A stretch of 63,073 nt of DNA, counting the filler, from Craspedostauros australis (Eukaryota): the NCBI GenBank assembly GCA_030167865.1. It is 11 parts of 11 records of this genome, joined end to end, with 100 filler letters (N's around TTAATTAATTAA, not from the genome) between each part and the next. Parts side by side here need not be neighbours in the genome. Positions count along the whole stretch, not along the records: positions 34,977 to 53,253 come from JALAGF010005878.1; 10 more parts are not named here. The stretch is one strand, 5' to 3'. The translations under genes were made by a program, and so were the position numbers. The notes beneath the pieces were generated by a model that was not told the DNA's origin, did no database searches, and saw only the letters and a program-made list of their open reading frames with translations. Positions 11,148 to 63,073 of the stretch are shown here, one piece after another. Each line of letters begins with the position of its first letter. The first letter of the stretch is position 1.

Positions 11148-14100
11148 TCATTCGTCATCGTTCTCAGCTTCCTCCTTCACCTCCAAACCGCGCAACGATT
11201 CGCTGAGCATGTCATCGAGCAGAGACTTCGTGCCTCGGGAGGACTTGGTCTTGCGGCTCTTCTTTTCGCCTGCACTTGATGGTGAATCGCTGAAGGGGAG
11301 CGGAACTGCCATCTTGGAAGACGATGCAACCATTGCCTTGCGACCTCCGGTCGTCATGGGCGTTTTCGATCTGCCGCCGCTGCTCTTTGTGGTCTCCGGC
11401 GATAGGAGGTTGGGCACGAACATGTTCATTGATCTCTTCGAACCGCCCATTGCGGATCTGTTGCGTCCCGTCGGTGCCGACTTTGGCACGGTGGGGAGAG
11501 AGCCGGAGCTCTTTCGCTTGATCTTTGGCGTCTTCGTGAGATGGTCGTTGTTGTGGCTGAGCACAGGGCCTGAAGTGCTCTTGCTGTCTCCCTTCCGTTT
11601 CGATTTGATGATCTCCGGTGACTGACAGTCTCCGTTTGGGGAATTGTCAGACTCCAAGGACTGGATGGGAACGCTGCGGAGCTTCCGTCTGCTCTTCGTA
11701 TCTGGATCATCCGACGAAGACATGGTTCTGGATCCTGATAGCTTTCGTCTCATGGATGGCGACTTGGAACGGCGCTTCGACTTGCTTGACGATCGTTCCC
11801 GACGCTCGCTCTTCTCTTCCGAATTTCTCGATCTGGAGACGGAGCGGTTGCGCCGTGGCTTGCGTTTGGATTGGGAACGAGATCGCGATCGTGCGTGGCT
11901 GCTCCTTCGCTCCATCTTCTCGCTGCTCGATGATGTCGCCGGTTCCGACGGCGATGGCTTCGAATTGATGGTCCGCTCCTTTCTTCGCGATCGGCTGGTT
12001 GATCGTCTATGTTTGGACGATGATCCTGACGTCGAGCTTCTCGCGCGCGATGTGCTGTTCGACCGCTTCTTCTTGCGCTCTTTCATGAGGAAGACGTCAT
12101 CGATCTGCAACGAAGCATCGGAGATCACGGACCCCCCGTCGGCTGATTCCGCCATTGCATGTTTGACCTCATCCAGGGAGTTTCTGAGAAAGTTGATGAT
12201 ATCTGAGCCAGCCTTTGCCGTCTTTGCCTTGTCCAACGGTGTTTCGCCATCGTCATTGGTTACCAGGATGGATCCCTTCGAGACCTTCGACAGGAGCTTC
12301 ACCACATCCAGCATGCTCTCGTAGCTCGCAGCATAATGCCTGTGCAGGTTTGAGTTGTGGTTCATTTGTCATTGGGTTTGTTGATTGCAATCAGGATCGA
12401 ATGTGGGGCAGAACAGCGTGTGTGCTTTGTCAGGTACCAACTCATCGTGCGATGTTCAACGCATTCACTAACACCAGCGACATTGTCAACACCAGCGCAA
12501 GCGCACGTCAGCGCAAGATGCAACGACCAGAGCATGACTTACAGTGGGATGTCATCATTCTTGTTGCGAACAATCGCAGCATCTGGATGCGCCTCCAACA
12601 AAATTCGTATGGTCTCGATCGGTGCCTGATATGCTGTCGCCACATGCAGAACGGTGTTGCCAGCACGATTGACCTCCTTGATGGCATGATGATTGGCAGA
12701 AAGGATGCTCTTGATCGCGCTTGCCTGCGATGCGGAGACATGAATCCATGCAACAAGGCACCAGCGGCATTTGGGAAGGAAAGGAATGAGTGTGTGAGTC
12801 CTGAGCGTCGCACCGCAGTGTACAATTGGTTCATCACCTCGCCTCGCCAAGAAATAAATGAACATGAAGCATACGTATCCATCACGCACGCGTGTTATGT
12901 GCATTGTCGCGACCTCTTGTTACTTACCGGCACCTGATACTGACACGCCTCATGCAAGACAGTGTTGCTTCCGCTCATGAGCGCCCTGGTCGCCTTGGGG
13001 TAGACCTTGACGAGGGCACGGATGACGGACGCGTCTGCCTTTTTCTTGACGGCGACATGCAGCGGCATGCGACCGCGCGTCGTTTCCATTTTGCTGGGTC
13101 TCGGATCTATGTCGACCAACGCTTTGACGAGTGCTCTGGTGGCTTTTCTATTTTCCGCCGCAATATGCAACGGCGTGCGACCCGTGTTGTCCTTGCGACT
13201 GCACGCCTGCTTGATGGCAAGGATTTGGACCACGTCCACGTTCTCACCGACTGAGGACGAAGCGCATGCCAAGTGCAAGGGAGTTGCACCGAACTGATCA
13301 CGCAGCAAGGATGCTTTGTGCGAGTATTTGGATTTCATGACGCGTCGGCAAATTTCGGGTTGCGCCTTGAACAATGCGCAGCAGTGCAACGGTGCCAGCT
13401 GTTGATTCGTAAGCATTGCGGACGAAGTGTGGAAAGCAAGGTGGTTGTGAGTGAGGACGGAATGCGTTGACGGCATGATGTGGTGGCCAATCGAACCCAA
13501 AAGGCCAGCCAACTGTTGACAACGCCAATAAATGCACTTACCGCCTCGCGATTCTTGACAAGCACAGGCGTGGTGGCTTCGTCCGCTTCCTCGCCCGTGA
13601 GGATGTCGATGAAGCGTTTGATTTTGTCATCGAGACCGGTCGTGCGCTTGCCGTATCGTTTGCGCGAATTGCTGGCGAATAGATGCAGCGGTGTGTCGCC
13701 CGCCTTGGATTGCTCGAGGATGCTGTCGGGATTGAGGGCGACGAGCTTGGTCGCCACGTCGATATCCATGCCCTTCTCGTGCTTGCAGGCTGCGATGTAG
13801 TGCAATGGCAGCATGCCGACGCTGTCGCATATTTTGGACGCCTCGGGATCGAACTCGATGAGCGTCTGCTGGATTGCCGCGTACGCGCCGAATCCCAGAG
13901 CGGCATGCAGCGGGGTGGCGCCGTTTTTGTTTTGGAGCGACGTGAATTTGACGGTGCCCGTGGCATGATCGGACGACGACGACGACGACATGCCGGATGG
14001 CGAACCATCGGGAGGCGCGGTGTGCTGGTACAGGATGGAATGCACGAGGGCGTTGCATTTGTTCTCGACGTAGGCGGTCGCCGAATCGGCCAGGAACGCA

Positions 14101-15185
14101 GGCGAGGAGACGAGCAGATGCAGGGGGATGTCGCCCTGGAAGTTGCGCACGTTGTGCGTGGACGGTGCGCCCTTGCTGAGAATCTCAATGATGGTGATAT
14201 CGATCTGGTTGGTGGATGGGTCCGATTCCAGGTTGGCGCATGCCAAGTGCATGGGCGTGTTGCCGTCGGCATCCTGCTTGATGAGGATGGCCTCGCGGCT
14301 GTGGAACGGGATGATGGAGACGAGTAGCTTGACGAGGGGGAGCGGGGCCTTCCACACGGCCGTGTGGATCGGCGTCGCCTTTGCTTTGGTGGTTGCGCAC
14401 AGCTCTGCCACGATGACGTCCTTGTCCTTCGTCTTGAGGTCTTCGACGGCGCTGAGCATCCCGTGCCAATCGGCCTTCTTCAAGAATTTGTGCAGATCCA
14501 CCGTGGGCTTGACGGCGGTCGCCAGCGACGCTGTTGGTGGCGCGGAGGCCGATGCAGACGCCGCCGATGCCACCGTGCCCGTGTCATGCGACGAGCCCTT
14601 CCTGCCTGGCGATTCCAGGGTGTTGTCGGTGTTGGAATCGACGGTGGGCGTGGTGGATCCCACCTCATCGAGCGCCTCGTGTCTGTAGGATTGCTTCTTG
14701 AGGCTGCTGTCGCTGCTGCGCATCTGGGCCATGTGATCGTCCAGATCCGTGGAGTCGGTGCGCGACAACGAGATCTCCACCTGGCGTCCGGCCATGCTGC
14801 TTGCGCTGTCGTTCAGCGGCGGTCTGGGTGGCGAGGGCGGTTGTTGTTGCTGTTCTTGCTGCTGTTCTTGCTGCTGTTCTTGCTGATGCTGCTGGTGAGC
14901 CACGATCATGGTGGCCACTTCCGCGGGATCCTTGAGGTCCACGGAGCCGTCCACCGTGACTTCCTCAAAGTCCACCTCCTCCTCGTAGTACTCGAACTCG
15001 TCATCGTCGTCTTCGTCGCCCACCTGGCCGAACGAGCCGCAATCGTCGTCGTCGTCGACGTACTCTTCGATGATCTCCTCTTCGTAGCCGTCTTCGGCGT
15101 ATTCCTCCATCGTCGATTGCCCATGGTGCTGCTCCTCCTCCACGACTTCCTCCATCACGTGCTTCGCATGCATGGCCGTCGCCAT
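11148..15185 (-). CDS. Ankyrin-repeat protein, 4 exons: 15185-13542, 13398-12928, 12724-12543, 12339-11148 (~1162 aa)
   Basis: Many G.TPLH ankyrin motifs. Three GTAAGT...CAG introns whose removal restores motifs in frame (KNREA|LAPLH, QVP|ASAIK, DDIPL|HYAA). Confidence 0.88.
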
Positions 15186-18100
15186 GGTCGCACTCTCGTG
15201 TTCAGATTCTGGGGTGTTCTCTTGTGTGCAGATTCTCAATGGTCTGGATGGTCTGAATGGTCTGAATGGCCTCAAGGGTGGTTTCTTGTTCGCACTTGTC
15301 TTCTGCTGTGTACTGTGGTGTGGTGGGATGTTGTGGTTGAGACAAAAGACTTCTTGCCAACGGTTGGTTTGCAGCCGTTCACTCTGCGCCCTGTGTATGG
15401 ATGAGGTGCGGCCTTGATCCTTGTGCTGTGAGTTGCTGCCCTCGACAAAGTGCCTCGATGAATTTCGGCGAAGGAATGTGTGTTGTGATGTGAGGATGGT
15501 GATCGTGGAGGTGTCGGCGGCGATGACAACGGCGATGCTGTTGTCGTCACGTTCCTCTCTCTCTTGTGTGTCAAACTCTTTCTTCCTGTGTTTCGCTGAG
15601 TCGGCCAAATGCAACAAGGATCCTATCTTTTCGCGCCGAACTTCTGTTCTTGTGTACGAGACTTTGAGTCGCGGAGTTGCTGTGGTGGTGGTGGTGGGTA
15701 TGGAAGCGAAGCCTTCGACCGCACTTGTCGCGCGGTACTAACCGTTTTTTGCGTCGGTGGCTTCTTGCTCAGCGATAATCCGCCTTGACAAACAAACCGA
15801 AAACGAGACAAAACGCGACTCTTCCCCCGCGCTTTTGATGTTCCGCTGTTGCGTATCTCGTTCTTGCTTTAGCGTCGCTGTTGGCGTTGTTATTTGAACA
15901 GAACCATCGAATAACAACGACCAAATCAATGAAGAACGTGGCAAGTGTGCAACCGATAACACCACCAAAATGGCTGCATCGTCCTAACATTCCAAATTCA
16001 CGAGGCTCTGTGCGCAGTTGTGGACATGCGACACGCATTCAGACGTGGAATATGTGTGTGTGTGATGCTTTGGTGTGCGCCATCGTGCCTGTCTTAATGT
16101 CGCTCTTGTCCTTTTCACGCCCTCAATCGTCACACTGTTACCACATCCTGTCGCACTTTCCTGCACGGCCCTAAGTGTTCCTTCTTCGTCACCCTCCCTG
16201 ACGTAGTGCGTGAAGCCTTCGGAGAAAAAGGACCCAAGCTGTGCAACGACAACAACACAAGAACCACAACCAAAACAATCGATTTCGATCGCCCAGCGCG
16301 CGACTGCTCGCACCTCACACGCAACGATGTGACGAACGCAATCCACGAGAAGTTGAGCAGCGCAACCAACCACACACAAACGTGAGTATGGTGCCAATAC
16401 TCTCCGGTTAGACTTGCGTCTTGCTAACTGCAGGCCAGTAATCGTAGTGGCAAGTTACTACATGTTGGAGGAAAAGCACGATATTGTGCAAGGCAGAATG
16501 AGCAAAGGCCAAATCAACTTTCGTTTGCTCATGGCGAGATAACGCTCCATCCACCCCCATGCTCTTCTGTTCATCCTTGCTCGACTTCCTCCAGATGCAA
16601 TCTCGTTCCAGTCCAGTGTGTACGAATAGAGTTCCTTGGGTTTGTGCCATGGATACGTTGATGGTACAAACACTTTGCCTCACATTTTCATCACCACTTG
16701 TACAAGTACCAGGCAATACATGAACAGGAACAATTGCATGCATCGGTGATGATGGAAAAGAGATTCCTAAGCTGCCTGATGCTGTTCCATCCAACCCTGT
16801 CCCATCGAAGGATGCCTCAGGCTCCACCTGATCCTAATTTCCTTGCTCTGCCCAATCACGTTCGGGAAAAGATGATGAACACATGATAAAGCCAAGCGAG
16901 ATTGCAAAGCACCTTGGAGACGCAGGGGCGAAGGATCACGATTGGATTCCGATGTGAAAGCAAGCAGAGGAACAAACACACATCATGGTCTTTGTCATGA
17001 GGCATCAGTGCGCTTCTGGTTCTCAATGGAGCTTTTTGAACTGTCAATATTCCGACTGACCTTCACCCGCTTCGCATTCGCTGGTTCTCACAAACCGTGA
17101 TAAAACGTCATTTGCATGTCCATCGTACGAAACACGGTTTTGACAACCTTCTTCGACACATTCAACCGCATTCTATTTGTATATTGCCCCGTATCCCAGA
17201 ACGTCGCCGAAAGTCCATTTTGGACAGCCTGCAACGACTCACAAGGGACACATACGGCCGTTCACGTTTCGGAACACAGCAACCCGGTTCCAGACCTGTT
17301 TGTCCTCCACAACGCGCCAACGTCCCACTTTTGCCCCAAAACAATGGACCCAGGAGCAATCCTATCGAATGCACCAACTGAATTGACCAGAGCACAAGCA
17401 CGTCTTGGAGCACACGGTGGAGCCAAATCTCATACCCTCTCTTGCAACCGCAGAGTTACAAACTACGAGTAGATCATGAAGGAGGAAGAGAGCCTGCTTT
17501 CTCACGCTGTTGTTCACGTGACGATTCCAACATGCCTGCCTGAGGCGTTCGATTTCGTGTGTCCGTTCGGTTTGGCTTCTTCGTGTTGATTGATTGGTTG
17601 GTTCCTTGAGTTTTCTTGGGCCTCATGGCTTTTCTGTTCTTCGCTCCTCCACGACTCAATGGATAGAGTCGTTCTGTCTGGCCTTCTTCCAACGTCGTGT
17701 TCATCCAAGTTCGCGAGTCGTCACCAAACTTCACGAGTCTTCGATGTCGTTCATGCGGCAAATAACCCGAAGAAGAAGCAAGCTGGAAATGCCCACGTCG
17801 CCAGCTGCGTCCCATGTCGCAAGAATTCGTGGCTTGTGTTCCGTTTGGACTCACACGATCGGTGCCCCACGAATAGCATGACGAACAAGAAAACTCTTCT
17901 CCCACAAACATACTTATCCCCTGGGCAAGATGTGACGTTCTTCATAAGTGTATTGGGACATGTCACACGACTCATGGTCGTTTTGCTCGTATTTTTCAGA
18001 TAGCGAAGAACATCCATCCCCAGCGTGTTGGAAGCAACCGCGTTTCAAATCAAACGTTTGGGTCGTGTCGGCCAACAACAAAGCGTTCAACGTGACAGTT

Positions 18101-18980: not shown

Positions 18981-20546
18981 TACAGAACTCACATCGTGAA
19001 CTTCCAACACCAACTCACGTTCAATCCGGAACTGGTCACCATCAACACGATCAGAGGAGTACTCTGCACTGCATATGCCACTCACAGAGGAGGCAAGGCA
19101 TACGTCGACGACTTCCAAGACAGCAACACGAAGAGCAACGATACCGGCTTCACAAGCACCGGTAACTTCAAGGGTACTTGTCACAACTGTGGTGTGTATG
19201 GCCATAGATCCGCCGATTGCCCAGAACGCAAGAAATCGAACAACAAGAAAAACAACAACAACAACAANNNNNNNNNNNNNNNNNNNNNNNNNNNNNNNNN
19301 NNNNNNNNNNNNNNNNNNNNNNNNNNNNNNNNNNNNNNNNNNNNNNNNNNNNNNNNNNNNNNNAAAGAAGAAGTTCAACGAAAGCAAGAAGAACAACGAA
19401 CAAGCCAACGCGGCTACGGAAGGACACGACAAGAGCGGGCACGAGATGGTACTCTCTGCAAAGGATATGCCGCTCTGCATGTTGGTGTCCGACAACTACA
19501 TCGAAGACTCCTTCTTCGATAACTTCGTGTGCGTTGGAAGTGACGACGAAGTACAGGATGATGAGATCGTCCCGGAGTGGCTCGACGAGGAGCCAATCAT
19601 CCACGAGGTGGATCCAAGACGCGAAGTGAGCTACGAATGCTGCTTCAACGCGCACGACCTGATCGGTTCATACNNNNNNNNNNNNNNNNNNNNNNNNNNN
19701 NNNNNNNNNNNNNNNNNNNNNNNNNNNNNNNNNNNNNNNNNNNNNNNNNNNNNNNNNNNNNNNNNNNNNNNNNNNNNNNNNNNNNNNNNNNNNNNNNNNN
19801 NNNNNNNNNNNNNNNNNNNNNNNNNNNNCAACAGATCGGGCATCTTCGACGAGGATGACAGCGACGAATCCGAGGACGGCAATCATCCAGACGACAGCTT
19901 CAATCCAAACGAGCGCGTCGTCTACCCAGGGAACATGGACTTCCCACCTATTGAAGATCTCAACAGCGTCGATTACCTCCTCCGTCACAGCACCATCCCG
20001 AATGCAACAGCAACAGCATTGATAATCCAAAAGCAGCTCATCTTNNNNNNNNNNNNNNNNNNNNNNNNNNNNNNNNNNNNNNNNNNNNNNNNNNCCAATC
20101 ATCCACGAGGTGGATCCAAGACGCGAAGTGAGCTACGAATGCTGCTTCAACGCGCACGACCTGATCGGTTCATACGGCTACGCAGCTGAGATGGACGACG
20201 AGGCCAACGATAGCGACATCGAAGAGGCCATGAGCGATGACGACGACGACGACGACGCCAACGAGGACGGCGCAGATGAAGACGACGAAACGAACCGCGC
20301 CGCGGCGCCGCCTCCTCCAGCGGCGGGGAACAACAGATCGGGCATCTTCGACGAGGATGACAGCGACGAATCCGAGGACGGCAATCATCCAGACGACAGC
20401 TTCAATCCAAACGAGCGCGTCGTCTACCCAGGGAACATGGACTTCCCACCTATTGAAGATCTCAACAGCGTCGATTACCTCCTCCGTCACAGCACCATCC
20501 CGAATGCAACAGCAACAGCATTGATAATCCAAAAGCAGCTCATCTT
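18981..20546 (+). mobile_element. Ty1/Copia gag region fragment
   Basis: CCHC zinc knuckle FKGTCHNCGVYGHRSADCP (19179-19220) followed by an N/K-rich and acidic linker; gap-flanking duplication. Confidence 0.75.
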
Positions 20547-24779: not shown

Positions 24780-27653
24780 ATGACATCAACGCCAACGATG
24801 ACGACAACGACAACAATGACAACAACGACATCATCTCGCGTGCCGCTGGCCGACACACCCCGGTCCAACATGCTGCACAAGAACAGGACGAGCAGCACGA
24901 AGAGCCTCAACGATCCATCGACCAACATGTCAGACACAGACTCGCTCACCAGCAGCGGGCTCTCCGATGCCCAGCAGCAAAGCTCTTCTTTGAAGTTCGA
25001 CCGCGCTGGAATCGTTGGGCGGGACAAGGAGAAGCGGGTGCTGTCCAATGCCATCAACCAGATGCTTGACAGAAAGCGAGCCACCCAAGGCACGCGAAGT
25101 CTGGATAGCACCAGCATCACCACCACCAGTAGCAGCACCAGCAGTCAAAGCTTCACCTCCAAACACAACAGTGAAGATGAGATGCATCACAAACAACAAC
25201 GTCGCGGGCAGCGCCATCGCACAAGTCTCAAGACAGTATGCTTCATCTCGGGACCATCAGGAAGCGGCAAGTCCGCACTCGCNATGCACTACAAGCAGCA
25301 CTGCCTCGACAACTTCGCCTTCTTCATTTCTGGCAAGTTCGATCTCCAGCAGATGGAGGAACCGTACGCGGGCATCAAGAACGCGATGGACCAGCTGGTG
25401 GAGCAGATCATGGCATTGCCTCAGGAGGATACTCGTATGGCTGATGCGGCAGTGGATGATCCGCGAAGATTCTCGACATTGCACCAATCGTTGATTCGGC
25501 GTCTGTCGTCGAAGGAGCTCAAGACTCTGTACAAGATCATTCCAGGTCTACTTGAGATGATGGTCGGCGAGAGCACCAGCAATACANNNNNNNNNNNNNN
25601 NNNNNNNNNNNNNNNNNNNNNNNNNNNNNNNNNNNNACGTCGCGGGCAGCGCCATCGCACAAGTCTCAAGACAGTATGCTTCATCTCGGGACCATCAGGA
25701 AGCGGCAAGTCCGCACTCGCAATGCACTACAAGCAGCACTGCCTCGACAACTTCGCCTTCTTCATTTCTGGCAAGTTCGATCTCCAGCAGATGGAGGAAC
25801 CGTACGCGGGCATCAAGAACGCGATGGACCAGCTGGTGGAGCAGATCATGGCATTGCCTCAGGAGGATACTCGTATGGCTGATGCGGCAGTGGATGATCC
25901 GCGAAGATTCTCGACATTGCACCAATCGTTGATTCGGCGTCTGTCGTCGAAGGAGCTCAAGACTCTGTACAAGATCATTCCAGGTCTACTTGAGATGATG
26001 GTCGGCGAGAGCACCAGCAATACAATTGCAGATCGACAGAACAAGGACCACGACCTCCAAGAAATTAGCGATGATGATGTCAGCGCAAGTGCCGATGGGG
26101 ATGCGAGCACATCATTGCGTGGCATTCGTGAACAATCTCTGACCAAACAGTCTTCGTTCACGAGCACATCCACCTCAGGATCGGCTGTTCATGGACTCGA
26201 TCTATCCGCTCAACCATCAACAGCCACAATCACAGAAGGATACAAAGCGAAGTCCGATCGAATCAAGCACACGCTCAAGCGATTCCTTCGGATCGTCTGC
26301 AATCACAGCCCGCTGGTGATCATGATGGACGACATCCAATGGGCTGACAAGGCATCGATCGACATCATGCAGACATGGGCAATGGATGGCGAGATCTCAT
26401 CCCTGATGATCATCGGATGCTTCAGATCCAACGAGCTTGAGCAAAGCCGAGACCTTCAAGACATGATCATGGCTCTTCAAGAATGCAAGCGAGAGAGATC
26501 CATCCGTGTCCTTGACATCCCGATCCAAGATCTACCGTTGCAGAGCGTCCGCCANNNNNNNNNNNNNNNNNNNNNNNNNNNNNNNNNNNNNGACGTGAAC
26601 GGTCTTGCTGACATTGTGCACCGCAAGACTGGAGGCAACATCTTCTTCATGAAGCAGTTCCTCGAGTCGTTGGTGTACGAGAAGCTGCTGTCCGTGAATG
26701 AGGACGACGGGATGAAGTGGATCTGGGACGAGCAGAAGATCGTGGCTGGGTCATCCGCCACGGCCAATATGGTTGATCTGATGAAGCAGAAGCTGGATCG
26801 TCTGGACGCTGCTCGTCACGTGCTGCCGATCGCGGCATGCCTTGGATCCACATTCTCGAACCGCAGGCTGATCCTTGCGATCCGGACACTGTCCATCCAC
26901 TCNNNNNNNNNNNNNNNNNNNNNNNNNNNNNNNNNNNNNNNNNNNNNNNNNNCGCGGCATGCCTTGGATCCACATTCTCGAACCGCAGGCTGATCCTTGC
27001 GATCCGGACACTGTCCATCCACTCTGACCACAGAGTATTCTTCAAGGATCTGTTGACGTCAGATGAGAATGCTGTGCTGATGCCATCTTCGCAGTCATCG
27101 GATGCATCTCAGAGATCGGATGGATCACAACGGTCGCATGGTGCTTCATCCCTCCGTCAATCGGAGCGGTCACAAGAGCTGCAANNNNNNNNNNNNNNNN
27201 NNNNNNNNNNNNNNNNNNNNNNNNNNNNNNNNNNNGTCTGTGAGAGAGAAGGCCTCATCGAGCAACATCTGCATCGCAGCTCTCAACGCCGAAAGTCTGG
27301 AACGAAGGATACGGGCATCGGTACTCAGCAGCAGCCCACGAACAACGCCAATGGGAAGCAAGGGTATCGATACACCTTCATCCATGATCAAGTCCAGGAA
27401 GCTGCGCTGTCGCTCGTTCCTCAAGACAAGCTCTCCGAGCTGCGGCACAGAGTTGGTGATGTCCTGCTCACCTCATACTCGAAGGGTGAGATGCGAGAGA
27501 ACAAGGTCCACATGATCGCTGGCCTCATCAATGCCAGACTCGATCTCGTACCCGCCACTGCTCAGCACACCGATCGTCGCATGAGGATCGCCATGCTCAA
27601 CTCCAAGGCAGGTCAGCTCGCTGTCGAATGCGCTGCATTCCAAGCTGCGGCAG
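24780..27653 (+). CDS. STAND/AAA_16-type ATPase of the kind found in Ser/Thr kinase-ATPase-histidine kinase proteins; 3'-truncated, with gaps
   Basis: Walker A ISGPSGSGKS, SGKFDL, Walker B LVIMMDDIQWADKAS, HRKTGGNIFFMKQFL, YTFIHDQVQEAA. Confidence 0.85.
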
Positions 27654-33822: not shown

Positions 33823-34073
33823 CTAATCAAAACTCAGTACATGGTGCCAGTTGTCGCAGCAACTAATCCGTGACAAGCGCAATGGGATTCGTTTGTAGTC
33901 CTGGGAAATTTAGGAAAACAATAACAGGAAATGCTGACATTTTCCCTACATCCGGGAAAATGTCGTCTATTTCCCCTGCTCCCAGTCAGCATCTTCATCA
34001 TAAGACCGTGAACACATTGAGCAATCATCCAGCAATTGTTTGTCTACCAACAGCTCAACAACCAACGACCAAC

Positions 34074-34876
34074 ATGCCGAATGTCTCAGACGATCAACTC
34101 CTTCATGCTGCCAAGGCAGGTGATCTGTCGGTGTTGAAGAAATGGAAGGAGCAGAACGAAGGACGTGATGTCAACAAGGTCAAAGGCTGCAATGGCTACA
34201 CTCCCCTTCATTGGGCATGCATCTACGGCCACCTGGAGTGTGTCAAGTACCTCATCGAATCAACCAACGCCGATGTCAACTGCACAAGCAACGATGGCGA
34301 CACTCCACTTCATCGAGCATGCTACAACGACAAGTCTGAATGCGTCGAGTACCTCATCGAATCAACCAAGGTCAATATCGACATCCAAAACAACAACAAC
34401 GAAACACCCGTCGAATTAATCAAAGCGTACAATCAGGTCAAGATGATGACATCAATCATGAAGCGTCTCGGCCATCTCAGTCGTCGCAACTTGCAACTGC
34501 AGACACAGCTGCAAACAGAGACGCAGGTGCGCAAGCAAAGCCACACAAACACCATCACAACACCAACCAAGCACGACAATCCTAAAATCCACACAACAAC
34601 CAACATCAGCATCGGCCAAGATCGTCGCAGCGCTGTTCGTTCTGAGGCCAAGGCAGACACCACCTTCCTGTGCGGACAAGGCAACGAACAACAGCCAATC
34701 AAAGCAAACTCCGGAGTCCTCATGGTCACTGTTCCGTCCATTCAGACATTGATCGACTCAGGAATCCAACATCAGCATGTCGATGACGGCATTGATGACG
34801 GCACTGATTCTGCCACTGCCCTCACCCGCAGGCTCATCCCTCTTCCCAACCATCAACCCAAACATGTCCAACGTGT
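34074..34876 (+). CDS. Ankyrin-repeat protein with a probable BTB/POZ-like domain start (3'-truncated)
   Basis: GYTPLHWACIYGHLECVKYLI and GDTPLHRAC ankyrins; ADTTFLCG...IKANSGVL...IPLP resembles the BTB N-terminus. Confidence 0.75.
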
Positions 34877-34976: not shown

Positions 34977-36920
34977 CCCCACAAGTCAGCCATTTCATGG
35001 GACTTGTGCCATCCTCCAGTAGTTGGAATGGTGTTGACAGATAGTTCATTGTGTGTTGACAGATAGTTCATTTGCCGTTGACCATGTTCATCTGCCATTG
35101 ACGATGTTCATCTCACATTAACACGGTTGCACGTGTTATCACATGTTGTTTGTGTTGTACTCATGCATCACTATCTCCATCACCAAGTTGATTCAGAGTG
35201 TGGATCTTGTTGTCACATGTGCGCATGGTCATGGTCAACATGTGTGTGTACTTACATGTACATGACACTGTGTATTGCAAGTACTGGTTGATGTTGAGTA
35301 CTTTGATCATCAATATCTCACGCTGTAGAGGTCCGTTGAAGGTGGTAGAAGTATTGACGTGTACGTATGGACGTGGTGCGTGTGTCTGTGCACTTAGATG
35401 TACGTGAACATGTGTTCATCATGGTGTAGCGTGGTGTACATGTTTCACACGGTGTATCGCGTGGCTCGTAGTATCCCGTGTTGTTTGGGAGTGTGTGTGT
35501 GAGCACATGGATGTGTGAGTATCACAGTTGATGGTGTTGACTTCCCCCTCCTCCCCCACAAGTCAGCCATTTCATGGGACTTGTGCCATCCTCCAGTTGT
35601 TGGAATGGTGTTGACTTCCCCCTCCTCCCCCACAAGTCAGCCATTTCATGGGACTTGTGCCATCCTCCTATAGTTGGAATGATATTAACAATAGTTCATT
35701 TGATGTTGACAGATAGTTCATTTGATGTTGACAGATAGTTCATTTGGTGTTGACTGTTGCATCACGGTCTCACCTGTTGTCGTGTGTTGTGCCTGGTTGT
35801 ACGGTGTGGCAGTGTGTGTGTTTGTGTGAGCATGTGGATGTGTGAGTATCACAGTTGATGGTGTTGACTTCCCCCTCCTCCCCCACAAGTCAGCCATTTC
35901 ATGGGACTTGTGCCATCCTCCAGTNGTTGGAATGGTGTTGACTTCCCCCTCCTCCCCCACAAGTCAGCCATTTCATGGGACTTGTGCCATCCTCCTATAG
36001 TTGGAATGATATTAACAATAGTTCATTTGATGTTGACAGATAGTTCATTTGATGTTGACAGATAGTTCATTTGGTGTTGACTGTTGCATCACGGTCTCAC
36101 CTGTTGTTGTGTGTTGTGGCTGGTTGTACGGAGTGGCAGTGTGTGTGTGTGTGTGTGTGTGTGAGCATGTGGATGTGTGAGTATCACAGTTGATGGTGTT
36201 GACTTCCCCCTCCTCCCCCACAAGTCAGCCATTNNNNNNNNNNNNNNNNNNNNNNNNNNNNNNNNNNNNNNNNNNNNNNNNNNNNNNNNNNNNNNNNNNN
36301 NNNNNNNNNTCCCCCACAAGTCAGCCATTTCATGGGACTTGTGCCATCCTCCAGTAGTTGGAATGGTGTTGACTTCCCCCTCCTCCCCCACAAGTCCGCC
36401 ATTTCATGGGACTTGTGCCATCCTCCTGTAGTTGGAATGATATTAACAATAGTTCATTTGATGTTGACAGATAGTTCATTTGCCATTGACAGTGTTCATC
36501 TCACATTGACGATGTTCATCTCACATTGACCATGTTCATCTCACATTAACGTGGTTGCACGTGTTATCACATGTTGTTTGTGTTGTACTCATGCATCACT
36601 ATCTCCATCACCAAGTTGATTCAGAGCGTGGTTCTTGTTGTCACATGTGCGTACGGGCATGGTGAACATGTGTGTGTGCTCACATGTACATGACACTGTG
36701 TATTGCAAGTACTGATTGATGTTGAATACTTTGATCATCAATATCTCACGTTGTAGAGGTCGGTTGAAGATGGTAGAAGTGTTGACGTGTGTGTACGGAC
36801 ACGTTGCGTGTGTGTGTACACTTAGATGTACGTGAACATGTGTACATCATGGTGTAGCGTGGTGTACATGTTTAACATGGTGTATCGTGTGGCTCGTACT
36901 ATCTCGTGTTGTTTGGGAGT
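34977..36920. repeat. Composite tandem array: 74-bp units nested in ~330-bp units, flanked by a ~510-bp direct duplication
   Basis: CACAAGTC...GACTTGTG core at 34980, 35557, 35631, 35884, 35958, 36219 (cut by gap), 36315 and 36389; 34977-35490 recurs at ~36385-36920. Confidence 0.92.
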
Positions 36921-37550
36921 TGCGGATGATGAACATTCGTCCGCACTTTCGGGGAGTTGCGGAACATCGATATTTTCCATACAAGAACGTCCGTACGTCG
37001 ACCGTATGTATTGCGCGCCCATACAAACGTCTGTACGTCGTCCGTCAATCGACCCAAACTTCGGTCTGGCCGTCGTACGTCACCGTGTTAAATCCTCGTA
37101 CATTAGGGTTTGATTGATTGCACCTGTGGACCTTCAGACGCAAGTTAGGGTTTATAAAAGCCGGAACCTGTGAAAGTCAAAGGTGATATTTTTGGCATTT
37201 TTGGTTGTGGTGGTGTGGAGTGGGCTCTTGGGCACGTTTATTGACGCTCGCTTTTGTCAACGGATGGATATTGAGCGAGCTGTGGGGTGTTGAAGTTTGT
37301 CATTATTTTGGGGGTTTTGTGGTATTTTGGGAGGTGGGGGACATGGACATTTGGTGGTACATTTGGGAGTTGCGGAAAATGGTGAATTGGGTGGTACATT
37401 AGCGTCCGTGCGTCGTCCGTAGTGTATTGGATTGTGGATAATCGGTCTGTCATTCGTCCGTTTGTGTGTGTGTACAGTCATTGGTCTGTACGTTGTTCGT
37501 TGTGAGTGCGTAGTGTGTAGTGTGTGTACAGTCGTTGTGCGTTGTTCGCT

Positions 37551-37611
37551 GTGAGTGTGAGGGTGAGGGTGAGGGTGAGTGTGAGTGCGAGGGTGAGGGT
37601 GAGGGTGAGTG
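37551..37611 (+). repeat. (TGAGGG)n/(TGAGTG)n telomere-variant hexamers
   Basis: GAGGGTGAGGGTGAGGGTGAGT occurs twice. Confidence 0.85.
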
Positions 37612-38239
37612 CATGCCATTGCTGCTCATGTGTGTCGTAGGGTGTAGTGACGTCCTTGTATTGTGGGTTATTGTGCAATGGCATGTTGTGTGATCGAGTT
37701 TTGACTTTGTGGGCATTGTTCGGGCACTTGTGTGTGTGTGTTTTTGCTGCCAGTGTGTTGGGGGCTATTAGCAACATTCTTTTTGGGGTTGTTGTGCATT
37801 GGGGTGTAGTGAGCTGTATCTTGATGTATGATTGGTGCTGTCAAGTGTTAGGGTGATGCTTTTGTGTCCTGGATTATTGTGCTTTGGTCTGTAGTGAGCA
37901 GTGTTTTGATGTATGATGGGTGCTGGAAATTGCTTTGGTTTTGTGCATTTTGTTATCGTGCATGGGCATTTAGTGAGCAGTTGGTGTCATGTTGTGCCAT
38001 GGCCTTGTCTCTGTGCATGCTTTGTGTGTCTTGTGTGCCTTTGCTACTCGTGTATTGAGGGTTGCAGGTTATTAGCAATGTTGTATCTTGGTTGTTTGTG
38101 CATTTCCTCGTTGTGAGCAGTGTGTGAGCAGTGTGTGAGTAGTGTGTCATGATTTGGCCATTTAAGTTTGTAGGGAACCATGTGATCAGTGTGTGTGCAC
38201 TGTGTGCGCTGTCTGTGTGTGCGTGTTGGCCAGTGACTG

Positions 38240-49442: not shown

Positions 49443-49593
49443 GGTGTGATGTACCGTGCTGTGATATGCTGTGTTGTGTTTTGTGTTTTTTGTGTGTTTG
49501 TGTTGTGATGCAACTTGGTGTGGCTTGTTGCGATATGTTGTGATGTGTTCCAGTGTGACGTGTTGCAATGGTGGTTCAGCTAGGATCAGCTTC

Positions 49594-50507
49594 GCTTGTT
49601 GTGGGCGAGAGATCGATGCAGGGGATCACAGTCAATCTCCTGTTGATGGGACAACTGATTCTGGCTCACACAGGTGACGCAATTGGTCTGTCTTTGCTTG
49701 TTGTGGGCGATAGATCAATGCAGGGGATCACAATCGATTTCCTGTTGATGGGGCAAGTGATTCCAGCTCACACAGGCAATGCAATTGGTCTGTTGTTTGC
49801 TTGTTGTGGGTGAGAGATCAATGCAGGGGATCACAGTCAGTCTCCTGTTGATGGGGCAAATGATTCCGGCTCACACAGGTGATGCAATTGGTCTTTTGTT
49901 TGCTTGTTGCGGGCGAGAGATCAATGCAGGGGGATCACAGCCAATCTCCTGTTGATGGGACAACTGATTCTGGCTCACACAGGTGATGCAATTGGTCTGT
50001 CTTTGCTTGTTGTGGGCGAGAGATCGATGCAGGGGATCACAATCAATCTCCTGTTGATGGGGCAACTGATTCTGGCTCACACAGGTGATGCAATTGGTCT
50101 GTTGTTTGCTTGTTGAGTTTGAAAGATCGATGCAGGGGATCACAGTCAGTCTCCTGTTGATGGGGCAAGTGATTCCAGCTCACACAGGTGATACAATTGG
50201 TCTATCTTTTGCTTGTTGCGGGCGAGAGATCAATGCAGGGGATCACAATCAATCTCCTGTTGATGGGACAACTGATTCCAGCTCGCAAGGGTGATGCAAT
50301 TGGTCTGTTGTTTGCTTGTTGCGGGCGAGAGATCAATGCAGGGGATCACAAACAATCTCCTGTTGATGGGACAACTGTTCTGGCTCACAAGGGTATTGCA
50401 ATTGGTCTGTTGTTTGCTTGTTGCGGGCGATGGATCGATGCAGGGGATCACAATCAATCTCCTGTTGATGGGGCAAGTGATTCCGGCTTGCAAGGGCGTT
50501 GCAATTG
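49594..50507. repeat. Nine tandem copies of a 102-103-bp unit
   Basis: GCTTGTTG...AGATC starts at 49594, 49696, 49799, 49902, 50005, 50108, 50211, 50314 and 50416. Confidence 0.96.
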
Positions 50508-50760
50508 GGCTGTCAGAGTGCAGAATGCTGGTGAGTTTTGTATTGGTGCAAGTTGGTGTGGTGTAGAACTTATGAGCATGAGAGTTGTGATGATCCCCAT
50601 GAATTGGATATCTGTGGCAAGTGAGGGAAGGGGGAGGAAGGTGGCAGTTCTGGTTCTTCATTGTTTAAAATTCCATAGCATGAGTGCGTCAACCTGCAAA
50701 ATCTGGCACAGGATGCAGAACAATCGTGCTTGATGCAGCAGTGTGTGGATCAATGGCAAT

Positions 50761-51768
50761 TGACCAAGCATGATGTTGATCATTGACACCTGCTCATGTA
50801 GGAATCAGTACAATTGTCGTTGATCAAGTAGGACACGGATGAATTGTACCTGGCCAAGTAGCATGCAGATGAATTCCACTTCACCAAACAGGACGTCAAT
50901 CAACTACACCTGCTCAAGTAGGAATCAGTAGAGTCGTGCGTGATCAAGCAGGACACGGATGAATTGTACCTGGCCAGGTAGCATGCAGATGAATTCCACT
51001 TCACCAAACAGGACGTCAATCAACTACACCTGCTCAAGTAGGAATCAGTAGAGTCGTGCGTGATCAAGCAGGACACGGATGAATTGTACCTGGCCAGGTA
51101 GCATGCAGATGAATTCCACTTCACCAAACAGGACGTCAATCAACTACACCTGCTCAAGTAGGAATCAGTAGAGTCGTGCGTGATCAAGCAGGACACGGAT
51201 GAATTGTACCTGGCCAGGTAGCATGCAGATGAATTGCACTTCACCAAACAGGATGTCAATCAACTACACCCGCTCAAGTGGGAATTGGTACAATCGTGCG
51301 TGATCAAGTAGGGCGCGGATGAATTCTACTTCACCAAACAAGATGTCAACCAACTACACCCGCTCAAGTAGGAATCAGTCCAATCGTGCGTGATCAAGTG
51401 GGACACGGATGAATTGTACCTGGCCAAGTAGCATGCAGATGAATTGCACTTCACCAAACAGGACGTCAATCAACTACACCAACTCAAGTGGGAATCAGTA
51501 CAATCGTCGTTGATAACGTACCACAGAGATGAATTCTACTTCACCAAAACATGATGTCAATCAACTACACCTGCTCAAGTAGGAATCAGTCCAATCGTGC
51601 GTGATCAAGTGGGACACGGATGAATTGTACCTGGCAAGGTAGCATGCAGATGAATTGCACTTCACCAAACAGGACGTCAATCAACTACACCAACTCAAGT
51701 AGGAATCAGTCTAATCGTGCTTGATCAAGTATCACGCAGATGAATTCCACTTCACCAAACAGGATGTG
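50761..51768. repeat. Higher-order repeat: ~33 30-bp monomers arranged as 120-bp (ABCD) and 90-bp units
   Basis: Monomers TGATCAAGTAGGACACGGATGAATTGTACC, TGGCCAAGTAGCATGCAGATGAATTCCACT, TCACCAAACAGGACGTCAATCAACTACACC, TGCTCAAGTAGGAATCAGTAGAGTCGTGCG. Confidence 0.96.
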
Positions 51769-53553
51769 GAACCGGATGCATCCGAGTGTGGCCGCGGCCT
51801 AGTTGATCAGTTTTTGCCTTCGGACGATTCTCCTTCGTGTCATGGAAAAAAAACTCACAATCACCCGCGAACCACACCCATGTCGATCGATGATCGCCAA
51901 CGCGAAGTGCTCACGCTCGCTATTTCTGCTTTGGAACTGCGTGGCGAAGCATGTTCGCTTCGCCGGTTCTCCATTGTCTTGCAGTGACGTGACGTGACGT
52001 AACGTGACATGGCGATTTCTTGATCGCGTAAGGGGTAACGGGTAACGGGTAACGGCACCCACAACACAGCGCCAACTGATCGAGGCAGCACAAAATGTGT
52101 CATCATGTTGATCCACGCACGTCTCCAACACACACAGAGCCCATCATCATTTTTATTGTGTTGTGAACATTGCTGTATCGGAATAGACCACCACGCTTCA
52201 CACACGCAAAGCACATCATCGTATTCGCGACCCTCCAATTGGTTTGTTCATGCGAATTCGCGTCGCCACACGCACATTTTTCCCGCCAAACATGCATTTT
52301 CAGCACAGCTGATGCACAACAACGTGCAAACAAGGATGTTCCGCAGCATTTATACTAAATCCGACCACACCATCGTGACCGCGACCTCCCACTCAGTCTC
52401 ATTGCACTAACACGCGTAATTTGCAGTTCATATCCAGAATACGACGGGCTGTTTTTGTTGATTGGTGTGCAAAAATGCATTAAAAGCCATGTTCTCGATG
52501 TGTCAGCACAAATCTGATTGCCTCGTAGTGACTGCCACCTCTCAATTGGTCTATCATGTCAACGAGCGCAATTAACAACCCATTTTACAAAATACTGGTA
52601 TGCATATTGACACTACATTTTTGACTATAACTCAAGACTGAGACATATTCAGGGCATGGCGATATCGGCACTGAGGTCGTGGTGGTCGTTTTAGTCGGTT
52701 GGGTGTATTACATACGAAATATCACGCAAAGTAAATATGCGCCCATTCCAGTACTGCTCGGTACCGTCAACGACGTGGCCACAGTTTGGAGCGATGAATG
52801 AACTTCTCACACGGTTCCACGCTCGTGGTGTCCCACACGACAATGATTTGATTGTTGTCGATCGGGCATGCCAATGATGTTGCATGGTCGTTGTCATTGC
52901 AATCAAATCAGCCAAATCAACCAAATCAATGCGAAACAAGCGTGCACAAGCGTGCACAACCACCGTCGAGACGGATCTCCTTCTCGTGTCGTCGCGTGGT
53001 GGTGTGCGAAACAGGCGCGTAATCACGATGTTCCACAAGATCGCTTGTTCTGAGCGGGGCGGCTGGCATCATACGAGGTCGTGCACGAGTGAGACGGCAG
53101 AACACGCAACGACATGCCAACTGTGACAACGTTCGTCGCGGATCAGAAAATGTTGATTTTGTGCACACACACAATTTCCCTTTGTGTGTTGTGTTGTGTT
53201 GCGACGGCCAAAAATCACTTCTCCGATTTGAGTTTATTTTGTGTGATGTGATGNNNNNNNNNNNNNNNNNNNNNNNNNNNNNNNNNNNNNNNNNNNNTTA
53301 ATTAATTAANNNNNNNNNNNNNNNNNNNNNNNNNNNNNNNNNNNNNNNNNNNNTGGACTTTTAGTCCATTGAATCAATCGCCGTGTCTCTCTCTCTGATG
53401 GATCCGTTGATTGATTGTTCGGTGGCATCAAGATACCAAAGCACACCATGTCCCCGCGCGTATTGTGCCACTCCGATTGGCAAAGTTCCAGGCTTCAAGC
53501 ACACATCACACCACTCGAAGCGCCGAAGAACTGTATCGATCGGAGTGGTATCG

Positions 53554-62029: not shown

Positions 62030-63073
62030 TGTTGGAAATCCGGGGTTATAGTTAGTACTAAATTCTAATCTGCTGTTAGAAACTGTACCGTTTTAGAACT
62101 GTGAGCACAATCTCACTTTCTCTTCCGATTTCGTCTTCATGGCAGGCATCTGTCGCGGTGGCAACACGGGGCATCCTGTTGTCTCTTAGGTGCTTCCCTC
62201 TTCATTCATCATGCTCTGTTCTTGCTTCCTTGTCTCTGCATCGTCGTAGCTGTCTACGCTTGCATGGTAGGGATCTGCAGTCTTGAGCTCTTGCCTATCT
62301 CATGTTTCCGTCGTTGATCTCATGACACCATCGTCTCATGGTCAATGTCACCTTTGGTGATGTTCCAAACCTGCGGTTGTTCTGATCCTTTCTGATGTTC
62401 CAAACCTGCGGATGTTCTTGTCCGCAGGAGGGGCGTGTGTTGTCCTCTGAAGAAGGTGCGTCACTTGCCCATGGACTTGCTGTTCTGATCGACGTCGTCG
62501 TCTGGATGGTTACCATCGTTGGCGCGTTATCGGGACCTCCTGATCTGCCATGGGTGTCTTCCTTACGTTACCAGAGGACAGGCTACCCTCCTCACGGTTA
62601 TGCAGGTATCAATCGCGTCCGTATGCTTAGTCATAGTCATATTGACCTGGCATATAAAGGTGTGACAAATAGTCTCAGAACATGTGACAAATAATATTCA
62701 AAGCTGTGACGAACAATGTTGGGAGGTGCGGCAATCACGGGTATTACGACAAAGTCGTACCCTCAATTCCTAACACCTGTTGGAAATCCGGGGTTAGTGT
62801 TAGTAAGAACTAATTGGTTGTTAGATCGTACTATTCAGAACTGTGAGCTCATTCTCTTCAGCTCCTTTGCCTTTCGTTTCCCATATAGCATCTCCTGCAG
62901 CAGCACCGTGTTATACTGTTGCATTCATGCATCTCATCATCATGAATCATCGCTTGCATACATGAGATCGCATCCGCAGGCATCCTTTGTCATGCATATC
63001 GTCGTGCATATCCGTAGGCATTCTTTCCATGCACCTCGTTGTGCATATCCTTATTCTACATTCCCTGCGGTAC
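62030..63073 (+). mobile_element. Two adjacent LTR family B copies (62030-62775; 62778 to window end)
   Basis: TGTTGGAAATCCGGGGTTA...TTCCTAACA, then CC, then TGTTGGAAATCCGGGGTTA again. Confidence 0.75.

Follow-up and report, generated by a model that had tools for sequence, protein, structure and literature searches.

The window analysed here, a 63-kb stretch of DNA (63,073 nucleotides), comprises 11 scaffolds joined by separators of the form N44-TTAATTAATTAA-N44. The gene of interest and the arrays around it lie on the scaffold at 34977-53253, whose sequence is interrupted by N gaps at 36234-36309 and 41640-41830. An intact ORF of 4620 bp occupies 44823..49442 on the minus strand and encodes 1539 aa from ATG to TGA, with no need of introns. 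The scaffold contains 84 stop-to-stop ORFs of at least 70 aa. The 62 outside the span of the main ORF were scanned with Pfam; the 22 omitted, including the main ORF itself, all lie within 45239-49625. None of the 62 gave a match at E ≤ 0.01, and no reverse transcriptase (RT), RNase H, capsid, ATPase, polymerase, polB or helicase was detected among them. The non-repetitive tail extending to the scaffold end (51878..53253), as read directly, contains no recognisable gene, and its ORFs have no Pfam match. The sequence-only reading had described the 4.6-kb ORF as the only credible gene on the scaffold, with no RT/RNase H, capsid, polB or helicase ORF beside it, and both statements were borne out.

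The recombinase part comprises the ~410 N-terminal residues of the ORF, where AlphaFold2, Foldseek and VIA delimit a two-domain tyrosine-recombinase module (residues 43-392; 48267..49316, minus strand). The AlphaFold2 model of the module has a pLDDT of 86.6 and a pTM of 0.75. As was found by a VIA structural comparison with 48,161 chains, Cre (1kbu_A) aligns with the model over 286 residues of both domains (Z 17.6, rmsd 4.7 Å) and is the best structural match, while XerA, XerH and λ Int score 14.5, 12.8 and 12.1, respectively. The Foldseek search against the PDB gave 40 matches at E ≤ 1e-3, the best being Cre (E 2.5e-7), and among the matches listed all were Cre, Xer or other tyrosine-recombinase chains. 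The sequence-model matches are weak but concordant (Pfam Phage_integrase, E 0.023; phrog_216 integrase, E 3.8e-4; XerD model, E 0.011), and in protein-language-model space the neighbours belong to Phage_integrase clusters (0.97). The family profile had no match among PDB sequences. Since the evidence from sequence falls under every curated cut-off, the recombinase call rests mainly on the predicted structure and the motif spacing, and by these the N-terminal part is a genuine tyrosine recombinase.

The predicted catalytic residues, with codons checked, fall within 48312..48740 on the minus strand: R235 (48738-48740), K264 (48651-48653), H333 (48444-48446), R336 (48435-48437), Y367 at the Trp/His position (48342-48344) and the nucleophile Y377 (48312-48314). 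The set R-K-H-R-Y(W position)-Y is complete. The corresponding residues of Cre are R173-K201-H289-R292-W315-Y324, and their order and spacing are the same in the window protein. In contrast to Cre, Xer and λ Int, with which it has 12-14% sequence identity, the window protein has Tyr at the Trp position, lacks an acidic residue three positions past the first Arg and adds a C-terminal domain and a 900-aa low-complexity tail. Counting only the family rows with a residue at the given column, the catalytic columns hold R in 21/22, K in 17/22, H in only 12/24, R in 20/24, W/Y/F/H in 20/23 and Y in 25/25. The earlier description of an intact YR gene thus agrees with the uninterrupted frame, the Cre fold obtained in the proposed AlphaFold check and the full catalytic set. 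It is probable that the enzyme is active.

A C-terminal domain conserved in the family follows at residues ~405-629 (~220 aa; 47556..48230, minus strand), as delimited by BLASTP to the relative P0003; the alignment spans this domain with 31% identity over 590 columns (E 1e-90). Its model has a pLDDT of 77.7, and no fold match was found for it by Foldseek (best E 0.36) or VIA (best Z 3.8). Further on, the ORF encodes an acidic D/E/N low-complexity stretch (residues 636-783; 47094..47537, minus strand; an 18-bp TRF row), the position of which is not common to homologues, and twelve SPFTRK-type motifs, as counted, in 21-aa (63-bp) coding repeats (45423..46442, minus strand; TRF periods 63, 150 and 198). 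The ORF ends with a helical, non-repetitive C-terminus. Its greater length, the acidic tract, the 21-aa repeats and the helical tail, together with a WW domain in the relative P0009, make the protein resemble a host protein more than a lean transposase. The GC3 of the conserved module (0.62) is within the range of four other window ORFs (0.56-0.74), which points to long residence of the gene in the genome.

A phmmer search with the ORF among 1.84 billion protein representatives found 25 at E ≤ 1e-3, the best having an E-value of 4.3e-78 at 42% identity. Every one of the 25 was drawn from a metagenome or run assembly (ENA, JGI or Logan), NCBI and UniRef contributing none. Most relatives are two to three times shorter than the window protein, and the family has very long branches, with a median of 0.84 changes per column. 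A search of 185,579 species, each represented by one genome, found no prokaryotic relatives. The family is small, deep-branching, unnamed and eukaryotic, and its conserved unit of ~580 aa consists of a Cre-like N-terminal DNA-clamp domain, the catalytic domain and the ~220-aa C-terminal domain.

A reading with a real but minor share of the probability is that the gene is a single-copy domesticated or host-maintained recombinase, still catalytic, which would act on host DNA such as the surrounding arrays or chromosome ends. The lineage-specific long extensions agree with it, as do the WW domain and coiled coil of P0009, the GC3 inside the host range, the single copy in the window and the 2.3-3.5-kb run-assembly contigs of many relatives, which could be transcripts. 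On the other hand, the family is extremely patchy (25 in 1.84 billion, 0 from named proteomes) and long-branched, unlike a conserved cellular gene. The domesticated Crypton derivatives (DUF3504 proteins such as QRICH1/ZMYM, and yeast Ndc10/Cbf2 and Gcr1) resemble the window protein in having a recombinase fold in a long, multi-domain, low-complexity protein, but the structural similarity is low by VIA (Ndc10, Z 6.0 and 4.5; QRICH1, Z 6.5 for the N-terminal domain only). According to PMC3212892, such derivatives have lost the catalytic tetrad, whereas the window protein keeps all its catalytic residues.

None of the tests run placed the gene in CryptonA, CryptonF, DIRS or Starship, the Crypton and Starship tests being made with Pfam models that stand for these recombinases and gave no match to the ORF. 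Like the window gene, Cryptons are eukaryotic, encode only a tyrosine recombinase with the R-H-R-Y set intact, have a low copy number and lack long terminal repeats. The absence of detectable RT, RNase H, capsid, polB and helicase gives the locus a coding capacity of the Crypton (YR-only) type. In Kojima & Jurka 2011 (PMC3212892), CryptonS is described from oomycetes and a diatom and, like the window family, has a conserved C-terminal region that is not GCR1_C. The window protein differs from those of Cryptons in its much larger size (1539 aa), in the origin of its family, no representative of which (0/25) is from a named proteome, and in the lack of matches to DUF3504 (CryptonA-derived) and GCR1_C (CryptonF-linked); in this comparison, made by Pfam models and description, homology to a named Crypton was not demonstrated. 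One copy is too few to define the Crypton termini (terminal repeats of 5-6 bp, TATGG ends); TATGG occurs on the gene strand at chance level (9 versus 8.3 expected).

DIRS, Ngaro, VIPER and TATE elements also possess a eukaryotic tyrosine recombinase, and TATE retroelements have been reported as telomere-associated. In contrast to them, no RT, RNase H or methyltransferase was found in any of 26 family members or anywhere on the scaffold, the ORF included, and split or inverted terminal repeats are absent from the scaffold. The 26 aligned members also lack DUF3504, DUF3435 and GCR1_C, as well as RT, at E ≤ 0.01. DUF3435, which we take to be the model of Starship captain recombinases, does not match the ORF. 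The likeness to Starships, giant transposons of fungi in which a single tyrosine recombinase, located at one edge, mobilises a large cargo unit (PMC10104507), is confined to that idea: here the cargo would be gene-free satellites only, terminal repeats are absent and there is no clear sign of a fungal host.

Tyrosine recombinases are known from integrated viruses and retroelements (PMC3212892), and the scaffold is short and gapped. It is nevertheless very improbable that the gene is a remnant integrase, whether from an integrated virus (Polinton-like virus, virophage or giant-virus fragment) or from a retroelement of the DIRS/Ngaro/VIPER type, with partner genes off the scaffold or decayed. 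The ORF is intact and undecayed, such partner domains occur in none of the 62 other ORFs and none of the 26 family members, and no relative turned up among 2.9 million viral contigs scanned in turn with A2, P0023 and P0021.

The tandem arrays listed around the gene in the sequence-only reading were all recovered by TRF. Of 56 tandem-repeat rows with a score of at least 100 in the window, 55 lie at 35491-51767 and one at 62972-63050. The scaffold starts inside a 327-bp higher-order array with 74-bp and 22-bp subrepeats (34977..36920; 2.2 copies, 96% matches; family D14), whose TRF rows at 35491-36233 are followed by the N gap at 36234-36309 and a 360-nt continuation to ~36920 (92% identical). 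A degenerate ~181-192-bp satellite of ~18 units (38260..41639; TRF period 181 at 39460-40126; families D8, D9, D13, D16, D19 and D20, spacings 181-223) is G/T-rich on the plus strand, with a GC skew of +0.29 to +0.36. Next come 43 copies of the GTGTGA hexamer (41833..42088; family D2), a ~184-217-bp satellite with a 28-bp subrepeat (42055..43704; TRF periods 157-217 and 409; families D6, D7 and D10), a TGTGTGTGG 9-bp array of ~20 copies (43839..44015; 95% matches; family D3), and a 22-bp array (6.4 copies, 44275-44417) with two copies of a 121-bp unit read directly after it (together 44275..44644). On the other side of the gene are nine copies of a 103-bp unit (49594..50513; 88% matches) and a 120-bp array with 30/90-bp sub-spacing (50704..51877; TRF period 120 with 4.5 copies and 95% matches, besides other rows), which forms family D1 with 9 copies. 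The 103-bp array is ~150 bp upstream of the ATG, and the 121-bp units are ~180 bp downstream of the stop codon.

It had been proposed that the gene and arrays form one large (at least 17 kb) recombinase-mobilised element; we regard this, or a role of the arrays as its recombination or binding sites, as unlikely. The concentration of repeat rows on one scaffold is in line with the proposal. The arrays adjoin the ORF on both sides and have in common with it a C/A-rich strand bias, so some of them may belong to the same unit as the gene. The 103-bp unit near the start codon, when its copies are aligned, contains an imperfect dyad (13-15 nt) that surrounds a spacer of 8 nt, a lox/FRT-like geometry, and this 36-nt dyad is matched at ≤3 mismatches in 8 of the 9 units. 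However, the hairpin z of -2.36 came after hand-picking of the 36-mer, and shuffled sequences fold as well as the whole unit (z -0.37). Dyads with arms of at least 9 and spacers of 3-12 showed no excess over shuffles in any array, which also tells against a host recombinase acting on them. All-against-all blastn found cross-matches between arrays only for neighbouring or low-complexity pieces, and no array sequence in common with the coding repeats of the gene. No inverted repeat of at least 40 nt or terminal direct repeat pair is present on the scaffold, and its start within an array leaves the extent of the block unfixed.

The proposed check for other copies carrying the same arrays gave no support either. 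Neither the gene nor any of the arrays recurs in the other 10 scaffolds of the window, and the only homologue locus retrieved (L001, 3.3 kb), a 3308-bp contig with P0007 as its single ORF, has no array stack, although here too a perfect tandem repeat of 21 bp stands at the end. The Crypton-like part of the earlier proposal stands in respect of YR-only coding capacity, but a large gene-plus-array element finds no support. The flanking arrays are best read as the repeat-rich, possibly subtelomeric DNA hosting the gene, and no result ties them to it as parts of one 17-kb mobile unit.

Most likely the gene codes for a recombinase, either Crypton-like or a host enzyme that is still active, and lies in DNA that is rich in satellites and possibly subtelomeric. 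Between these, we lean modestly towards an intact, probably active recombinase gene of an unnamed family with Crypton-like coding capacity, sitting in satellite-rich DNA. By analogy with Cre, Xer and Flp and with the model that Goodwin et al. proposed for Cryptons (quoted in PMC3212892 and PMC9977147), the two domains would clamp a short site, and Y377, helped by R235, K264, H333, R336 and Y367, would attack the DNA to form a 3'-phosphotyrosyl link, with strand exchange through a Holliday junction. The gene may be mobile, although the 63 kb holds only one copy, without termini, target sites or empty sites; if it is, a circle would be excised and re-inserted at a short matching target.

As for the chromosomal setting, no perfect TTAGGG dimer and two near-tandems occur in the window, which has 19 TTAGGG copies versus 8.0 ± 2.9 in shuffles. 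The plus strand of 37103-43547 carries 18, with 1.3 ± 1.1 expected locally, but these copies are part of repeat units and the counts are not independent. As the earlier reading held for its ~190-bp array, TTAGGG(G) motifs, isolated or paired on direct reading, lie within the ~184-217-bp satellite units, and the setting of the gene is possibly subtelomeric.

The minus-strand ORF at positions 44823–49442, running for 1539 codons from ATG to TGA, encodes a protein in which the Pfam search found no families when the whole sequence was used. As was found by a search with the first 421 residues, Phage_integrase (PF00589) is hit with 14.9 bits (E 0.023), which lies below the gathering score of 27.1 taken as the criterion for a match to a curated model. 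The same 421 residues showed weak matches to the integrase phrog_216 of the PHROGs collection (E 3.8e-4) and to the XerD model (E 0.011); none of the five homologues scanned alongside matched in either scan. The family profile found no matches among the PDB sequences. The phmmer search of the whole protein against the PDB gave a sole match, to the acidic tract of HUWE1, and was discarded.

An AlphaFold2 model of the recombinase, built from an alignment of the ORF domain with 25 phmmer relatives, reached a pLDDT of 86.6 and a pTM of 0.75. The comparison of this model with the PDB by Foldseek gave 40 matches at E ≤ 1e-3, the best being Cre (E 2.5e-7, probability 1.0), followed, among the matches listed, by XerH and XerA, with Flp, XerD and phage integrases just above 1e-3. 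VIA, a comparison independent of Foldseek that covered 48,161 chains, also placed Cre first (Z 17.6, 286 residues, rmsd 4.7 Å), in a match spanning the two-domain fold over model residues 43–392. The runners-up were XerA (Z 14.5), XerH (12.8), lambda integrase (12.1) and an integron integrase (12.0), and the 23 chains with Z of at least 8 comprise recombinases, type IB topoisomerases and one prophage regulator. The DUF3504 protein QRICH1 was matched with Z 6.5 over the N-terminal domain alone, and the Crypton-derived yeast Ndc10 with Z of 6.0 and 4.5 only. In the protein-language-model atlas, the recombinase domain was placed among Phage_integrase clusters (0.97).

The catalytic set includes R235 (within ETGAR), K264, H333-x-x-R336, Y367 at the Trp/His position and the nucleophile Y377. 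In the family these positions are conserved in 21/22 (R), 17/22 (K), 12/24 (H), 20/24 (R), 20/23 (aromatic or His) and 25/25 (Tyr) sequences, the counts taking in only the alignment rows with a residue in the given column. Since the catalytic residues stand in canonical order and spacing, the tyrosine recombinase call made by eye in the sequence-only reading is correct, and the Cre fold of the predicted model bears it out; the AlphaFold modelling suggested there as a check resulted in a confident model with Cre as the nearest fold. The ORF encodes a true tyrosine recombinase, intact and, by the predicted structure, Cre-like, and its coding capacity is of the Crypton type.

In the closest relatives the homology extends about 220 residues past the recombinase (for the homologue P0003, 31% identity over 590 columns, E 1e-90), and the same C-terminal region is recognisable among more distant family members. 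The model of this C-terminal domain has a pLDDT of 77.7, and no fold or feature match to it was found by Foldseek (best E 0.36), by VIA (best Z 3.8) or in the atlas, which returned nothing usable. The domain is followed by an acidic tract (residues 636–783), a Pro/Ala-rich region with 12 SPFTRK-type motifs in 21-aa repeats and a non-repetitive helical tail that makes up the last part of the protein. These three parts are not common to the relatives, which have their own extensions, such as 430 N-terminal residues including an acidic tract in P0003, or a WW domain and a coiled coil in the homologue P0009. The GC3 value is 0.62 in the conserved module, 0.56–0.74 in four other ORFs of the window and 0.46 in the tail of the ORF, a stretch of 900 codons (44826–47522, minus strand), most of which is made up of coding repeats of 18 and 63 bp. 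In this stretch, both strands have further reading frames that stay open for 250–390 codons.

Searched exhaustively with phmmer, a set of 1.84 billion representative proteins yielded 25 relatives at E ≤ 1e-3, including 13 at E ≤ 1e-10 and five at E ≤ 1e-30; the best of them shows 42% identity (E 4.3e-78). All 25 representatives originate from ENA, JGI/IMG or Logan assemblies and none from NCBI or UniRef, and the sole name they bear is 'hypothetical protein'. Over the 26 aligned sequences, the Pfam search at E ≤ 0.01 yielded just three hits, one each for WW, Phage_integrase (0.0018) and a stray glycosidase domain, and detected reverse transcriptase, DUF3504, DUF3435 or GCR1_C in none of them. 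The family is rare and is covered by no curated model or named proteome. The maximum-likelihood analysis, comprising 19 of the 26 sequences (seven had a core coverage below 70% and were left out), placed the protein from the window in a group with the homologues P0002–P0004 (support 94/94); the branches of the tree are long, with a median of 0.84 changes per column. No relatives were found among 185,579 prokaryotic species represented by one genome each, and viral contigs, scanned three times, also yielded none. The scan of metagenome contigs with the family alignment A2 and the word-index protein search with the single recombinase domain gave no matches, and the word-index search with the 26-row profile returned two proteins, both already known.

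The search of metagenome contigs with the homologue P0007 found its own contig, L001, and one weak match on the gene-dense contig L002. On the contig L001 (3308 bp), P0007 is encoded by a single ORF free of introns, preceded by 1.15 kb of sequence and followed by 0.5 kb, and the last 98 bases of the contig (3211–3308) are a perfect 21-bp tandem repeat in 4.7 copies. Longer contigs carry P0003 and P0027–P0029 (5.9–11.4 kb), P0009 (26 kb), P0021 (15 kb), P0023 (89 kb) and P0047 (34 kb). Motifs containing GGTAAGT were noticed upstream of the P0007 ORF at about positions 5, 70, 797 and 982. The match on the 11-kb contig L002 (MTKZ01011125.1, 2834–4444) covers 80 residues of the P0007 catalytic region at 33% identity (E 4e-4) and probably represents an integrase of prokaryotic or viral origin. 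The cluster of P0007 also lists ten 'hypothetical proteins' of 38–56 aa with sequences unlike P0007, which suggests an artefact of the clustering or the look-up; those of 55–56 aa were disregarded.

Several groups of eukaryotic elements employ tyrosine recombinases. Starships are gene-carrying elements with a DUF3435 captain at the 5′ edge and terminal repeats, but the ORF shows no match to DUF3435, and the scaffold carrying it has neither cargo genes nor terminal repeats. DIRS, Ngaro and VIPER elements possess reverse transcriptase and RNase H, with or without a methyltransferase, beside the recombinase, as well as terminal repeats; in contrast, reverse transcriptase and RNase H were not found on the scaffold as assembled or in the family, nor were terminal repeats on the scaffold. 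Cryptons are rare and hard-to-delimit recombinase-only elements of eukaryotes, which probably arose independently several times. As far as the description by Kojima and Jurka goes, Cryptons are transposons of eukaryotes with a tyrosine recombinase bearing the R-H-R-Y tetrad as their sole product, they lack long terminal repeats and have terminal direct repeats of just 4–6 bp, their copy number is usually very low, and they fall into four deep groups that may have arisen independently (PMC3212892). The likeness to Cryptons is that the ORF encodes a recombinase, and reverse transcriptases or DDE enzymes are absent from the ORFs of the scaffold and from the family. The recombinase-only coding capacity suggested by the sequence-only reading held up, as none of the 62 ORFs scanned on the scaffold outside the recombinase gene matches Pfam, with no reverse transcriptase and no cargo genes among them.

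In the same description, CryptonF is characterised by GCR1_C, CryptonA by a match to DUF3504 at E ≤ 8e-12, and CryptonS, found in oomycetes and a diatom, by a conserved C-terminal region other than GCR1_C and mostly TATGG termini (PMC3212892). The ORF differs from CryptonA in that its recombinase has no match to DUF3504 at E ≤ 10 (nor have any of the 26 family members at E ≤ 0.01), and from CryptonF in that GCR1_C is not matched and the model of its C-terminal domain has no fold match. By the published description its architecture, a recombinase with a conserved non-GCR1_C C-terminal region, is like that of CryptonS. No named proteome of an oomycete or a diatom is among the sources of the 25 family representatives, and TATGG occurs at chance frequency. 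Domesticated Crypton derivatives are described as having lost the catalytic residues (PMC3212892), whereas the ORF protein keeps them, which speaks for an enzyme that is still used, whether to transpose itself or to serve the host. The account of active Cryptons in Chlamydomonas gives the first direct observations of Crypton activity, which include insertion at a 5-bp target, clean excision, and the driving of inversions and translocations (PMC9977147). If the gene is mobile, behaviour of this kind would be expected of it, with a 5-bp target, clean excision, inversions and translocations.

The window comprises 11 draft-assembly scaffolds separated by N44-TTAATTAATTAA-N44 spacers. The scaffold with the recombinase gene (34977–53253) is 18.3 kb long and has two N gaps inside; its start falls within a 327-bp array, and the other end is 1.4 kb of non-repetitive sequence. 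The window contains 56 TRF rows with a score of at least 100, and 55 of them are located at 35491–51767. Every array listed in the sequence-only reading was recovered at its place and in its order by TRF and a repeat-family search. The arrays are unlike one another, save for overlapping neighbours or common TG-rich low complexity. Upstream of the gene, some 150 bp separate the ATG from the start of the 103-bp array; on the other side, the 121/22-bp arrays stop about 180 bp beyond the stop codon. The origin of the arrays as decayed copies of the 63-bp coding repeats of the gene was considered and rejected, as no similarity was seen. The motif TTAGGG occurs 18 times on the plus strand versus 1.3 expected locally, recurring within repeat units and nowhere forming a perfect dimer. 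These motifs are compatible with a telomere-associated satellite but do not locate the scaffold to the end of a chromosome. The plus strand is strongly G/T-rich at about 36000–46000, with GC skew reaching +0.67. As the gene lies on the minus strand, the gene and all the sequence downstream of it are C/A-rich on the strand of the gene. This strand asymmetry spans 10 kb, crossing several arrays unrelated to one another and extending into the gene.

The proposal that the gene and the arrays constitute one large element of about 17 kb (34977–51768) draws on the concentration of arrays on this scaffold, close to the gene on both sides, and on a 36-nt dyad resembling lox and FRT sites, which is present at 49612–50469, with up to three mismatches, in eight of the nine units of the 103-bp array. 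This dyad is imperfect, with arms of 13–15 nt and a spacer of 8 nt; the arms are near-invariant between the units, and most differences occur in or around the spacer. The geometry is similar to that of lox and FRT sites but is statistically unremarkable: the 36-mer, which was chosen by eye, has a hairpin z of −2.36 (3 of 200 shuffles fold equally well), against −0.37 for the entire 103-bp unit, and the units of 103, 120 and 74 bp gave unremarkable results in hairpin tests. Besides, in none of the arrays did a blind dyad scan (arms of at least 9, at most one mismatch, spacer 3–12) find dyads enriched relative to shuffles. No terminal repeats bracketing the gene and the array block and no inverted repeats of at least 40 nt were found on the scaffold, the arrays are unlike the coding repeats of the gene itself, and blastn and tblastn searches with the scaffold and the protein found no other copies on the remaining 10 scaffolds of the window. 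Given the dyad statistics, the lack of bracketing repeats and the single copy, the large element is neither demonstrated nor strictly refuted, and we regard it as improbable. The observation of the sequence-only reading is confirmed, and its interpretation was half right: the tyrosine recombinase of Crypton-type capacity stands, and nothing positive was found for an element uniting the gene with the arrays. No described recombinase element with such a layout was found in the literature searched.

The gene contributes a catalytically intact family with a predicted Cre-like structure, missed by curated models and lacking in named proteomes, and it also brings a conserved extra domain without a known fold match. 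Such proteins could account for rearrangements in protist genomes rich in repeats, and they are also candidate new site-specific recombinases. A fuller interpretation would see here a new deep eukaryotic lineage of tyrosine-recombinase elements, combining a Cre-like part with a novel C-terminal domain, which resides in tandem arrays and perhaps builds or reshuffles them; the dyads of the 103-bp array would serve as recombination or binding sites, and the whole would be a mobile module resident in satellites or subtelomeres. We give this combined interpretation little credence. If the arrays were indeed substrates of the recombinase, it would be linked, hypothetically, to satellite dynamics.

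No tRNA genes and no Rfam families were found in the window. The remaining scaffolds encode ankyrin repeats, an AAA_16/STAND ATPase, a fragment of a Na/Pi cotransporter and a zinc-knuckle ORF, all in ordinary-looking eukaryotic ORFs. The long ORF of the AAA_16/STAND-type NTPase (E 1.3e-25) and the ankyrin-repeat ORFs, located at 24780–26993 (plus strand), 13335–15617 (minus strand) and 33870–34876 (plus strand), are apparently free of introns across 300–760 codons. A scaffold of 1.6 kb contains an ORF of 397 aa with a CCHC zinc knuckle (18996–20189, plus strand, E 1.1e-5), which is possibly a fragment of a retroelement gag gene.
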